From Bryobacterales bacterium (GTDB lineage Bacteria > Acidobacteriota > Terriglobia > Bryobacterales > UBA6623), in the NCBI GenBank assembly GCA_965242705.1, contig OZ251486.1, positions 3,151,806-3,215,805 on the forward strand: DNA of 64,000 nucleotides, written 5' to 3'. The notes below the pieces were generated by a model. It saw only the letters and a list, made by a program, of their open reading frames with translations. It had not been told where the DNA came from and made no database searches. Numbering within the stretch: the stretch's first letter is position 1; each line of letters starts with the position of its first letter. A program made the translations under genes and the position numbers. This document shows positions 14,264-14,546 of the stretch, one piece after another.

Positions 14264-14290
14264 CGGCTTGCGCCGCTATTCCACAAGCCG
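14264..14290 (+). terminator. Hairpin immediately after the NHL gene stop
   Basis: CGGCTTG (14264-14270) pairs with CAAGCCG (14284-14290) across a 13-nt loop. There is no clear U-tract. Confidence 0.3.
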
Positions 14291-14306
14291 GGCCGCGCTT
14301 CGCACG

Positions 14307-14364
14307 GCGGTCGCGAGTCACGGGCCGGGCCGCGCCTGACGGCGCGGCGGTCGCGGGTCACGGG
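14307..14364. repeat. Short direct repeats flanking the GCCGCGCC-TGAC-GGCGCGGC hairpin (element copy E4)
   Basis: GGCGGTCGCGAGTCACGGG (14307-14325) and GGCGGTCGCGGGTCACGGG (14346-14364) flank the perfect 8-bp-stem hairpin at 14329..14348. This is followed by (GGGTCAC)-like iterations. Confidence 0.85.
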
Positions 14365-14491
14365 TCACGGGTCAAGAGTCGCGGGGCGCGGCAATCCCCG
14401 GCGCGCCCATGTTCCCCCACAACTTGCGTTTGACCTTCCGTTACGATGGGCCGCCGCCGGGGGCAGGCCGCCCGCGCCTCGACCCGCAGCC

Positions 14492-14546
14492 GCCGCGCCG
14501 TCAGGCGCGGCCCCTAACCCCCAACCCCTGCCGCGTGAAACGCGGC
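14492..14546. repeat. Dispersed intergenic element, copy E2
   Basis: Hairpin GCCGCGCC-GTCA-GGCGCGGC (the reverse complement of the 14329 and 33896 hairpins), then CCCTAACCCCCAACCCCT, then hairpin GCCGCG-TGAAA-CGCGGC. It lies between convergent genes. Confidence 0.85.

Follow-up and report, generated by a model that had tools for sequence, protein, structure and literature searches.

The three repeat loci found in the window, the 64,000-nucleotide stretch of DNA analysed here, are members of a species-specific mosaic interspersed repeat family that is far larger than the window itself shows. The genome-wide pattern search proposed in the original prediction was carried out on the source genome (96% complete, 2 contigs) and recovered 37 copies of the perfect 20-nt hairpin together with many further family members. 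Perfect hairpins of the family numbered 288 compared with 6 in a reversed-genome control, and 35 hairpin/tract junctions were found compared with 0 in the control. In the window, four matches to the 20-nt hairpin were obtained at three or fewer mismatches, against a shuffle mean of 0.27, and none of 100 shuffles reached four. The fourth of these matches, at 35211-35230 with 3 mismatches, falls in sequence that looks coding and was rejected as a family member. The parts of the window loci are as follows.

10512..10677 (-): module C, a ~170-nt non-coding repeat, AACCGCACGGCTTCAG...CCGTCAAGCCTGACGG, adjoining the G-tract (delimited by blastn coverage)
10678..10704 (-): heptamer tract, A-GGGGTTA-GGGGTTG-GGGATTA-GGGGG on the minus strand
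10705..10721 (-): hairpin GCCGCGC-AAA-GCGCGGC of the 7-bp stem class, shorter-stem variant GCCGCGCAAAGCGCGGC
14255..14284 (+): gene-end palindrome GTGGAATAGCGGC-TTGC-GCCGCTATTCCAC, 13 bp, 100% complementary, overlapping the TAG stop of an NHL-repeat gene
14292..14324 (+): degenerate hairpin GCCGCGCTTCGCaCGGC, then T-type heptamers GGTCGCGAGTCACGGG
14329..14348 (+): perfect hairpin GCCGCGCCTGACGGCGCGGC, 8-bp stem, TGAC loop (sequence search)
14349..14385 (+): T-type heptamer tract, (GGTCGCG/GGTCACG)n
14481..14511 (-): inverse arm, GACCCGCAGCC plus perfect hairpin (14492-14511)
14512..14529 (-): G-type heptamer tract, A-GGGGTTG-GGGGTTA-GGGG on the minus strand
14530..14546 (-): hairpin GCCGCGT-GAA-ACGCGGC, shorter-stem variant GCCGCGTGAAACGCGGC
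33896..33915 (+): perfect TGAC-loop hairpin, 10 nt past the stop codon of an AKFD-repeat coiled-coil gene
33916..33947 (+): G-type heptamer tract, A-GGGGTTA-GAGGTTA-GGGGTTG-GGGGTTA-GGG

The coordinates originally given for the perfect hairpin (14329-14348 and 33896-33915 on the plus strand, 14492-14511 on the minus strand) and for the shorter-stem variants (10705-10721 and 14530-14546) hold, and C/G heptamer tracts adjoin the hairpin in three loci (10678-10704, 14512-14529, and 33916-33947), as had been proposed. The direct repeats and short iterations described around 14307-14364 were also found, as GGTCRCG heptamers and a near-identical 19/20-nt direct repeat at 14304-14364. In the 14530-14546 hairpin, a T-A pair replaces the consensus C-G pair at the inner end of the stem, which is a compensatory change. 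The perfect hairpins at 14329 and 14492 are the arms of a larger 33-nt inverted repeat (14327-14359 / 14481-14513, 94% complementary), and the copy at 10678-10721 forms the 5' end of a ~215-nt composite on the minus strand (10512-10723). The gene-end palindrome is built from the NHL gene's own final codons and is common to 6 of 12 paralogous NHL gene ends.

Genome-wide, the hairpin was joined to (GGGGTTR)n in 83 elements (G-type) and to (GGTCRCG)n in ~120 elements (T-type). The 83 G-type elements have 29 distinct hairpin sequences, and their stems, all complementary, are of three discrete lengths (7, 8, and 10 bp). Their tracts consist of GGGGTTA, GGGGTTG, and GGGATTA units with a period of 7 and contain 1-14 G-runs (mode 5; at least four in 60 of the 83), and in 23 elements the tract runs on into module C, of which ~73 copies were detected by blastn. 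Since element copies diverge by 3-25%, the expansion was not very recent. The tract, first described as telomere-like, is not a telomeric feature; it belongs with the G-rich heptamer simple-sequence repeats common in bacteria (Rehm et al. 2015): each tandem 7-nt unit contains a G-run of at least 3, the unit number is variable, the runs are mostly enough for a predicted quadruplex, and the arrays are intergenic near stop codons.

The hairpin is very stable (approximately -19 to -20 kcal/mol), and a predicted G-quadruplex adds approximately -3 to -11 kcal/mol; for the canonical element, ViennaRNA predicted -29.8 kcal/mol with the gquad option and -18.8 without it, and the same option predicted a G-quadruplex in the tract at 33916-33947. 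Such structures would suit selected cis-acting gene-end signals, i.e., orientation-independent terminators or 3'-exonuclease barriers that stabilise mRNA and have spread through their usefulness, to which pausing or Rho loading at a G-quadruplex or a C-rich (rut-like) tract would contribute. Indeed, REPs of E. coli stabilise mRNA as barriers to 3'-exonucleases. The placement of the repeats bears on this explanation in both directions. Hairpins are not scattered randomly with respect to genes, 76% of the many copies lying outside ORF calls that cover 82% of the genome (18% is outside), which agrees with a gene-end role, whereas about one quarter of the hairpins overlap ORF calls. Among upstream same-strand ORFs, 20 of 43 end 11 nt or less before the hairpin, and a stop triplet abuts the element in 30 of 83 cases; the 83 elements have 56 distinct upstream contexts. 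The 3'-end enrichment that was to be examined proved to be a mild tendency, with hairpins in 5.7% of the spacers between convergent genes, 4.3% of those between tandem genes, and 3.2% of those between divergent genes, classes that rest on crude gene calls. All copies had been placed at gene 3' ends or in convergent spaces, which is correct for the window; genome-wide, 15 of the 83 G-type elements are in divergent spacers by the same crude calls, and their orientation relative to flanking genes is near random, neither of which is expected of a gene-end signal.

No canonical hairpin plus U-tract terminators were found at these gene ends, which counts in favour of such a signal, and most Xanthomonas heptamer repeats are transcribed (Rehm 2015, PMC4692102). 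However, the family hairpins themselves are not followed by a T-run (AGGGG or GGTC stands there instead), and a hairpin plus T-run terminator scan gave no site at 14290-14550, 10678-10721, or 33896; an intrinsic (Rho-independent) terminator was therefore rejected. Furthermore, the unit number varies freely among paralogous gene ends, and orthologous gene ends in congeners function with element-free spacers of 22-36 nt. A selected cis-acting signal is thus unlikely as the explanation of the family, and any terminator, RNA-stabilising, or G-quadruplex effect would probably be secondary.

The sequence family had not been recognised at the outset, and it matches neither an Rfam family nor a repeat named in the literature searched. 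At gathering thresholds, Rfam returned only tRNA in the whole window, and at E<=1 the region 10400-14700 gave only two chance-level matches, both inside the NHL gene. The consensus RNA structure of module C is weak, two small hairpins (-3.7 kcal/mol) being all that was obtained by alifold of 57 copies, and a structured RNA or sRNA was not favoured for this module.

The REP/BIME-like organisation that was originally suggested stands with regard to the DNA, which is dispersed, mostly intergenic, palindrome-based, and mosaic, but fails with regard to the partner enzyme. Short GC palindromes in hundreds of extragenic copies, the inverted doublet at 14327-14359 / 14481-14513, and the mosaic BIME-like arrangement would fit REPs or REPINs of the classical kind, moved in trans by a RAYT (REP-associated tyrosine transposase). 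In the PF01797 (Y1_Tnp) search for a RAYT/IS200 transposase at E<=0.001, no match was obtained in this 96%-complete genome, whereas 6 of 14 control genomes gave matches, so that the RAYT-type transposase that was to be looked for is absent by this search. Nor was there a conserved GTAG-type 5' tetranucleotide, the hairpin being embedded in heptamer units. Mobilisation by a RAYT is accordingly largely refuted and highly improbable. A search for reverse transcriptase (PF00078) likewise gave no match in the genome, and telomerase-like templated heptamer addition by a resident reverse transcriptase thus has no candidate gene. With RAYT/IS200 transposase, reverse transcriptase, Rfam match, and U-tract all absent, the family is REP/BIME- and heptamer-like, with palindromes in tens to hundreds of mainly extragenic copies, and is not a RAYT-REP system.

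The family is confined to this species among the genomes compared. The junction pattern has 35 occurrences here and none in 30 relatives, six congeners among them; the tract alone occurred 147 times here and 0 times in the six congeners; and module C was found in none of the 30 relatives. A junction scan of 185,579 species gave only 9 stray matches, of which 3-4 share the hairpin plus heptamer grammar (L006/L010, L007, and L013) and the others are chance. A metagenome scan with LptE yielded relatives at 59-79% identity alone, with no near-identical strain among them.

Orthologous sites were compared at five loci, two of which were clean; the other three lie on synteny breakpoints and hence provide no insertion evidence. 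The 3' end of rfbA is followed by 290 nt here versus a ~22-nt spacer in the congeners G002, G005, and G006, and the second empty site has 271 nt here versus 27-36 nt in G002, G003, and G006. At both sites the ancestral spacer was replaced and not simply interrupted, and no target-site duplication was visible. A MITE was rejected since the ends of the ~290-nt composite (GGCCGCGC... / ...TTCAGAGGTTTCCTA) are not mutually inverted and no target-site duplication was present. The lack of terminal inverted repeats in the composite also speaks against its being an insertion unit.

Many copies were carried along in segmental or paralog duplications, multiplying with the paralogous gene ends beside them. 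By their flanks, the 37 perfect hairpins group into 14 clusters. The inverted doublet at 14327-14359 / 14481-14513, the one clear doublet in the window, has five paralogous, co-duplicated copies, and the 33896 hairpin was co-duplicated with the AKFD coiled-coil gene family. At the 12 paralogous NHL gene ends, the number of downstream units varies between paralogs. The hot spot at 1.456-1.508 Mb was considered as an integron attC array or CRISPR and rejected as either; it is made up of Mu-like remnants and arrays of paralogous genes, namely AKFD coiled-coil genes and a membrane-protein family of 27 copies.

The dispersed repeats are associated with genes for a four-helix-bundle protein (TIGR02436/PF05635, "23S rRNA IVS protein"), three of which were found in the source genome at 114-120 bits. 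The protein here has 129 aa, and its nearest solved structure is XCC0516 of X. campestris (2GSC). In all three cases, a perfect TGAC hairpin and a G-tract form the 5' leader of the gene, and heptamer/hairpin arrays lie downstream, consisting of quasi-complementary (GACCCGY)n and hairpins. The minimum-free-energy fold is predicted in 3 of 3 cases to pair the upstream G-tract with the downstream C-rich heptamers around the ORF; the arrays are only quasi-complementary in this genome, pairing at 6 of 7 positions, one of them G-U. Two of the cassettes follow the 3' end of a member of a 27-copy protein-gene family, and at the third the family gene is reduced to ~110 nt and lies behind hairpin-heptamer repeats. 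All three have repeats and other ORFs downstream and are located between protein-coding genes, not in 23S rRNA. Within 40 kb of PF05635 genes, 31 of the 83 G-type elements were found versus 2.7 expected, an excess confounded by paralog arrays and island content. As for the enzymology, no mobilising enzyme was found (PF01797, PF00078) and a four-helix bundle of 129 aa is not readily seen as a recombinase, which counts against mobility.

The same association was observed in other genomes. Arrays of 7/8-nt units flank the PF05635 gene on both sides at 32 of 41 foreign loci, and in 22 of these 32 bracketed loci (22 of 41 overall) the arrays are inverted-complementary; there are 4.07 arrays per kb close to the gene versus 0.37 per kb farther out. 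Within the genus, the PF05635 gene is present in the source genome, G003, and G006, and was not found in the congeners G001, G002, G004, and G005. Copies of the flanking heptamer (AGTGGAN)3 number 83 in G003, 42 in G006, and 0-2 in the others, and the hairpin plus heptamer grammar is alike in G003 and G006 while the sequences are different. Congeners without the PF05635 gene lack these heptamer families. Period-7 arrays detected by TRF in 400-kb congener samples numbered 8 and 4 versus 3, 2, and 0 in genomes without the gene, counts that are too few to give more than a weak contrast. In further genomes, the flanking heptamer is again genome-specific and dispersed (107 matches in G133, 27 in G219, and 9 in G128) and absent from the other genomes tested. 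In all six genomes tested, the heptamer bracketing the gene is that of the genome's own dispersed family.

These observations bear on another explanation, namely that only generic processes (slippage, palindrome fold-back/template switching, and ectopic recombination) produced the repeats, with no dedicated machinery, and that PF05635 genes are passengers inserted or retained in pre-existing arrays. The failure to detect transposase or reverse transcriptase (PF01797, PF00078), the origin of the gene-end palindrome in the gene's own final codons, the plastic unit numbers, and the location of elements at synteny breakpoints are all consistent with it, as is G002, which has two (AGTGGAN)3 matches and no PF05635 gene. 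It does not explain, however, why congeners lacking PF05635 are without these arrays despite equal base composition and replication machinery, or why the heptamer flanking the gene is the genome's own dispersed family in 6 of 6 genomes. Moreover, the inverted-complementary arrays at 22 of 32 loci occur across many genera with a different heptamer each time, which indicates a structured unit and is hard to reconcile with random insertion into arrays. We therefore regard generic processes alone as a possible but doubtful explanation.

Taken together, we consider that the dispersed mosaic repeats are probably DNA-level selfish or neutral insertions at gene ends that arose after speciation, with PF05635 cassettes as the likely source or partner. 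The core of the element is a perfect GC palindrome, GCCGCGC with an optional C or CGC, a 3-4-nt loop, and the complementary arm. This palindrome lies within slippage-prone heptamer arrays, A(GGGGTTR)n on one side or alternatively (GGTCRCG)n, and the G-tract often leads into a non-coding module of ~170-250 nt. Elements were probably inserted into short gene-end spacers after the species split from its congeners, multiplied further by duplication with paralogous gene 3' ends, and reshuffled by gain and loss of heptamer and hairpin units. TTAGGGG repeats contain TAG in all three frames and CCCCTAA repeats contain TAA in all three on the other strand, so that insertion at a gene end would truncate an ORF cleanly, which would account for the stop codons found 1-7 nt ahead of many hairpins. 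Much like a RAYT gene, which has its REPs on either side, the PF05635 cassettes may be the source or partner of the gene-less dispersed copies. The elements may thus be mobile as units, and the PF05635 protein or cassette may drive or seed them.

A broader proposal is put forward only tentatively. PF05635 cassettes might be the autonomous representatives of a class of elements without a transposase, widespread but so far undescribed, whose ends are genome-specific heptamer arrays and GC hairpins, and intergenic heptamer repeats (STRR, GGGNATC, and hairpin plus GGGGTTR) might be their solo ends or products. The protein might then bind or process the folded array stem, like the structurally related Avd, which acts in diversity-generating retroelements.

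The family resembles the REP/BIME/REPIN repeats of enterobacteria and pseudomonads in that GC-rich palindromes form hundreds of mostly extragenic, lineage-specific copies, with mosaics and at least one clear inverted doublet, and flank a presumed partner gene. Unlike those repeats, it has neither a RAYT/IS200-type transposase nor a GTAG-type guide, its palindrome lies in tandem heptamer arrays, and the framed gene encodes a four-helix bundle of 129 aa instead of an HUH enzyme. The Pfam name 23S_rRNA_IVP goes back to intervening sequences of 23S rRNA that bear an ORF (Leptospira, Coxiella S23p); in these too, a PF05635-family ORF lies within inverted repeats able to pair as a long stem. The cassettes here differ in lying between protein-coding genes, in having heptamer arrays and GC hairpins as arms, and in the dispersal of gene-less arm copies through the genome. 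BOX elements of Streptococcus pneumoniae, with the structure boxA-(boxB)n-boxC and a 45-nt internal unit, are similarly modular and intergenic, with a variable internal tandem unit between fixed ends and no transposase of their own; here, the internal unit measures 7 nt, the sequences are unrelated, and the host belongs to another phylum and has a different base composition.

Tandem heptamers abound in several bacterial phyla and have been on record since 1990, the cyanobacterial STRR repeats reportedly having been described by Mazel et al. in that year; no origin or function for such repeats was named in the literature searched. The G-rich heptamer repeats (GGGNATC of Xanthomonas/Nostoc, and STRR) are like those here in having 2 to >10 units of 7 nt with a G3-5 run, in preferring run numbers sufficient for a G-quadruplex, and in being over-represented in intergenic DNA and close to stop codons, whereas the array here is fused to a perfect hairpin and longer modules and its units are GGGGTTR and GGTCRCG. 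In Xanthomonas, 70-75 pairs of arrays are in inverted arrangement; that study found no link to mobile elements and made no mention of PF05635 genes (Rehm et al. 2015, PMC4692102). The TAACTGA repeats of Beggiatoaceae, cyanobacteria, and Bacteroidetes are likewise intergenic heptamer arrays carrying stop codons, and their patchy distribution suggests horizontal spread with no evident mechanism; they are AT-rich, not G-quadruplex-forming, with no hairpin described and PF05635 unmentioned (MacGregor 2015, PMC4679880).

For this organism, the elements mark synteny breakpoints and paralog-array junctions, supply stop codons, and are likely to break short-read assemblies. The heptamer repeats are parts of a defined mosaic element gained after speciation, and their link to one small gene family is one of position, sequence, and presence and absence within the genus, seen also across 41 other loci. 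The association with PF05635 hints at an origin of bacterial 7-base repeats, and it turns an old descriptive puzzle into testable questions: whether the four-helix-bundle protein binds the arrays, and whether its presence creates or moves them.

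Re-reading the window sequence (C1:3151806-3215805, on one of the two contigs of this 4.98-Mb, 65% GC genome) bore out all coordinates of the original prediction, which had described a dispersed TGAC-loop hairpin joined to a C/G tract.

Hairpins, tracts and composite in the window
10512-10723, minus strand: composite with module C
10678-10704: C-rich tract
10705-10721: shorter hairpin
14329-14348, plus strand: perfect 20-mer GCCGCGCCTGACGGCGCGGC
14492-14511, minus strand: perfect 20-mer
14512-14529: C-rich tract
14530-14546: shorter hairpin
33896-33915, plus strand: perfect 20-mer
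33916-47: G-rich tract

With up to three mismatches, GCCGCGCCTGACGGCGCGGC had four matches in the window, against a mean of 0.27 in shuffled windows, and none of 100 shuffles reached four. The match at 35211-35230 (three mismatches) was rejected as a family member and lies in coding-looking sequence. The 14264-14546 region has more order than had been described, and both perfect hairpins (14329 and 14492) are parts of a 33-nt inverted repeat (14327-14359 / 14481-14513, 94% complementary). Two homopolymer runs of the window are candidate slippage switches: C15 (10896-10910), about seven codons past the ATG at 10874 within the NHL-repeat ORF 10805-14263, and G18 (47882-47899).

The proposed genome-wide pattern search yielded many further copies, namely 37 perfect copies of the 20-mer and 288 perfect family hairpins, as compared with 6 in the reversed-genome control. 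By length, the stems form three distinct groups, of 7 bp (3-nt loop), 8 bp (4-nt loop), and 10 bp (3-nt loop). By our own classification, about 100 of the 288 hairpins lead into A(GGGGTTR)n (G-type) and about 120 into (GGTCRCG)n (T-type); the other 68 have neither. A stricter pattern gave 83 G-type elements with 29 distinct hairpin sequences; 60 of these contained at least four G-runs in the tract, the mode being five. An independent search for heptamer arrays gave 67, almost every one with the hairpin directly on its 5' side. Because GGG(G) also directly precedes the hairpin (...TTAGGGG-[CCGCGC..GCGCGG]-CAGGGGTTA...), the hairpin stands within the heptamer register. Its predicted energy was -19 to -20 kcal/mol (ViennaRNA); with the G-quadruplex option, the tract was predicted to form a three-layer quadruplex and the C-rich strand to retain the hairpin only. 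On the 3' side of the G-tract, 26 elements carried another, identically oriented hairpin with T-type heptamers, and 23 carried module C, a repeat of about 170 nt starting with AACCGCACGGCTTCAG. This module is present in about 73 copies at 75-97% identity, 25 of them with an extra tail ending in ...GCTTGTTCAGAGGTTTCCTA, and showed almost no conserved RNA structure. The suggested Rfam search matched no part of the hairpin/heptamer/module C mosaic, and membership in an Rfam family was rejected. The hairpin/heptamer family is a mosaic rather than one single element.

A third short-unit tandem family of this genome consists of arrays of the octamer GGGCTGAC, with as many as 35 units (C1:3571543-3571822, 1807834-1808065, and 19 further sites), together with five (GGACTGAC)n arrays; one array of this family (C1:1492123-1492210) adjoins a PF05635 (four-helix-bundle) gene. 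Outside the window, C1:227742-270225 is a single giant CRISPR array (42 kb, 589 repeats of about 36 nt, repeat core GGGGCCGGGGTCTTTCGACCCCGG).

The hairpin/tract junction occurred 35 times in this genome and not once in 30 relatives, of which six were congeners and several were closed or nearly closed genomes. The tract alone was found 147 times here versus 0 in the six congeners, and module C was absent from all 30 relatives searched. A junction scan of one genome per species (185,579 species) gave nine stray matches, three or four of which (an Acidobacteriota, a Peptococcaceae, and a Terracidiphilus MAG) had the same grammar, a hairpin followed by GGGRTTA-type repeats. In the Peptococcaceae (L007, 3125-3147) and Terracidiphilus (L013, 5922-5944) loci, which belong to unrelated phyla, a GC hairpin ending in ...GCGGC and then A(GGGRTTA)n directly follow the stop codon.

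Congeners lacked the element at two orthologous sites occupied here. In G002, G005, and G006, the convergent stops at the 3' end of rfbA are separated by about 22 nt, and here the spacer is a 290-nt composite; at the second site, a 271-nt composite with 12 heptamers stands in place of a spacer that measures 27-36 nt in G002, G003, and G006. A target-site duplication was seen at neither site, and the composite lacks terminal inverted repeats; hence, a MITE was rejected. Three further loci compared were at synteny breaks, with a multi-copy paralog as one flank. The organisation had been called REP/BIME-like and a RAYT transposase suggested. Searches of this 96%-complete genome with PF01797 (RAYT/IS200) and PF00078 (reverse transcriptase) gave no match, and control genomes gave matches. 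REP-RAYT membership was rejected since the defining RAYT gene was not found; the family behaves like REP/BIME, as a mosaic, but is not a RAYT-REP system. It also resembles BOX elements in behaviour, and in composition the G-rich heptamer repeats of Rehm et al. 2015 (PMC4692102) and the cyanobacterial STRR.

Positions relative to genes were obtained with crude codon-bias ORF calls (3497 ORFs, 86% of the genome); the trimmed calls took up 82% of the genome, and 76% of the hairpins lay outside them. Hairpins were present in 5.7% of convergent, 4.3% of tandem, and 3.2% of divergent spacers, and their orientation to the flanking genes was near random (same/same 25, opposite/opposite 19, opposite/same 21, same/opposite 18). 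These values indicate that the proposed gene-3' or convergent placement holds as a tendency, not as a rule. Where the upstream gene was on the same strand (43 cases), its stop codon preceded the hairpin by 11 nt or less in 20, and TAG or TGA directly abutted the G-run in 30 of the 83 G-type elements. TTAGGGG repeats contain TAG in all three frames and the opposite strand, CCCCTAA, contains TAA in all three, so that an element inserted into a gene end would be capped at once. Such elements could also be read as transcription terminators or transcript stabilisers. As the reason why the family exists, this reading is opposed by the empty orthologous sites in congeners, the random orientation, and the lack of U-tracts; no T-run followed any hairpin, and an intrinsic terminator was rejected. 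Effects on transcripts are probably secondary.

Many hairpin-element copies are passengers of paralogous genes. The 37 perfect hairpins fell into 14 flank clusters. The 3' end of the NHL gene and the repeats that follow it (window 13300-14550) form a segmental paralog found at least 12 times at 85% identity or higher (C1:2574821, 1364134, 1704072, 1272012, 4412394, 1419555, and others); for the gene's 3' kilobase there are dozens more copies at about 73%, and the family occurs in congeners at about 67-70% identity. The copy at 33896 lies 3' of a gene of the AKFD-repeat coiled-coil family (window gene 33337-33885), and in six tandem copies of this family a G-type element is located 3-7 nt past the stop in all six. 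This array (C1:1458770-1462004) consists of six paralogous genes of 100-147 aa, the proteins having a conserved N-terminus, (A/T)KFAELG-type repeats in varying number, and a TM helix at the C-terminus.

The 12 NHL paralogs vary in loop sequence and carry from one to three hairpin/T-type units and from two to five G-type heptamers, indicating that unit gain and loss is faster than point divergence. At 14255-14284, a perfect 13-bp palindrome (GTGGAATAGCGGC-TTGC-GCCGCTATTCCAC) overlaps the stop codon of the NHL-repeat gene; its 5' arm comprises the last NHL codons and the TAG stop, and its 3' arm is an inverted copy of these. Six of the 12 paralogs have the gene-end palindrome, and the others have a GC hairpin, usually GGCCGCGC, straight after the stop. 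These gene ends suggest fold-back or template-switch copying. In all six congeners (L055-L060), a sulfatase-like gene in divergent orientation follows lptE (stop at window 14592) at a distance of a few nt to about 100 nt, and in this genome the NHL gene and repeat mosaic occupy that place; this difference identifies the 14264-14546 locus as a lineage-specific rearrangement joint.

Three genes of PF05635 (23S_rRNA_IVP, the equivalent of TIGR02436) were found in this genome (114-120 bits). All three have a perfect TGAC-loop hairpin and G-tract in the leader, running into ...GGGAAGAAGGGAGGGCGA-ATG, and (GACCCGY)n with hairpins on the 3' side. GGGGUUR pairs with YGACCCG at 6 of 7 positions, including one G-U, and in the predicted minimum-free-energy fold the two arrays would pair around the ORF in all three copies. 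This cassette resembles ORF-bearing 23S rRNA intervening sequences. Within 40 kb of the PF05635 genes (3.3% of the genome) lie 31 of the 83 G-type elements and 90 of the 288 hairpins, a clustering confounded by the richness of these regions in paralog arrays. The nearest solved structure to the protein is XCC0516 of Xanthomonas campestris (2GSC), the species in which GGGAATC heptamer repeats, including 70 inverted pairs, were reported (Rehm et al., PMC4692102); no link between the PF05635 family and heptamer repeats was found in the literature searched.

Of 201 genomes sampled from the phylum, 120 had PF05635. Among 41 loci of other genomes, 32 were flanked on each side by period-7/8 arrays no more than 230 nt away (with inverted-complementary units in 22 of the 32), four had an array on one side only, and five had none; array density in the 41 was 4.07 per kb close to the gene versus 0.37 per kb farther off. 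Within the genus, the gene was found here and in G003 and G006, and not in the other congeners searched (G001, G002, G004, and G005). Its frame in G003 and G006 consists of (AGTGGAK)n and GC hairpins, e.g. GGGCGCC-TGGC-GGCGCCC, the same grammar as here built from other sequences. (AGTGGAN)3 occurred 83 times in G003, 42 times in G006, and 0-2 times in the others, and the hairpin/heptamer junction recurred 21 and 11 times in G003 and G006, respectively. The heptamers flanking the gene in three more distant genomes are likewise dispersed families in their own genome only (G133, 107 matches; G219, 27; G128, 9; elsewhere 0-1). An alternative explanation is that PF05635 genes merely settle in heptamer arrays already there. 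We infer instead that the gene-less copies derive from, or are partnered by, the PF05635 cassettes.

The elements of this genome form a lineage-specific mosaic repeat family of GC palindromes and heptamer arrays. After speciation the family was inserted into spacers at gene ends, and it was multiplied along with paralogous genes; its unit number is plastic, and its structure is the same as that of the PF05635 cassette ends.
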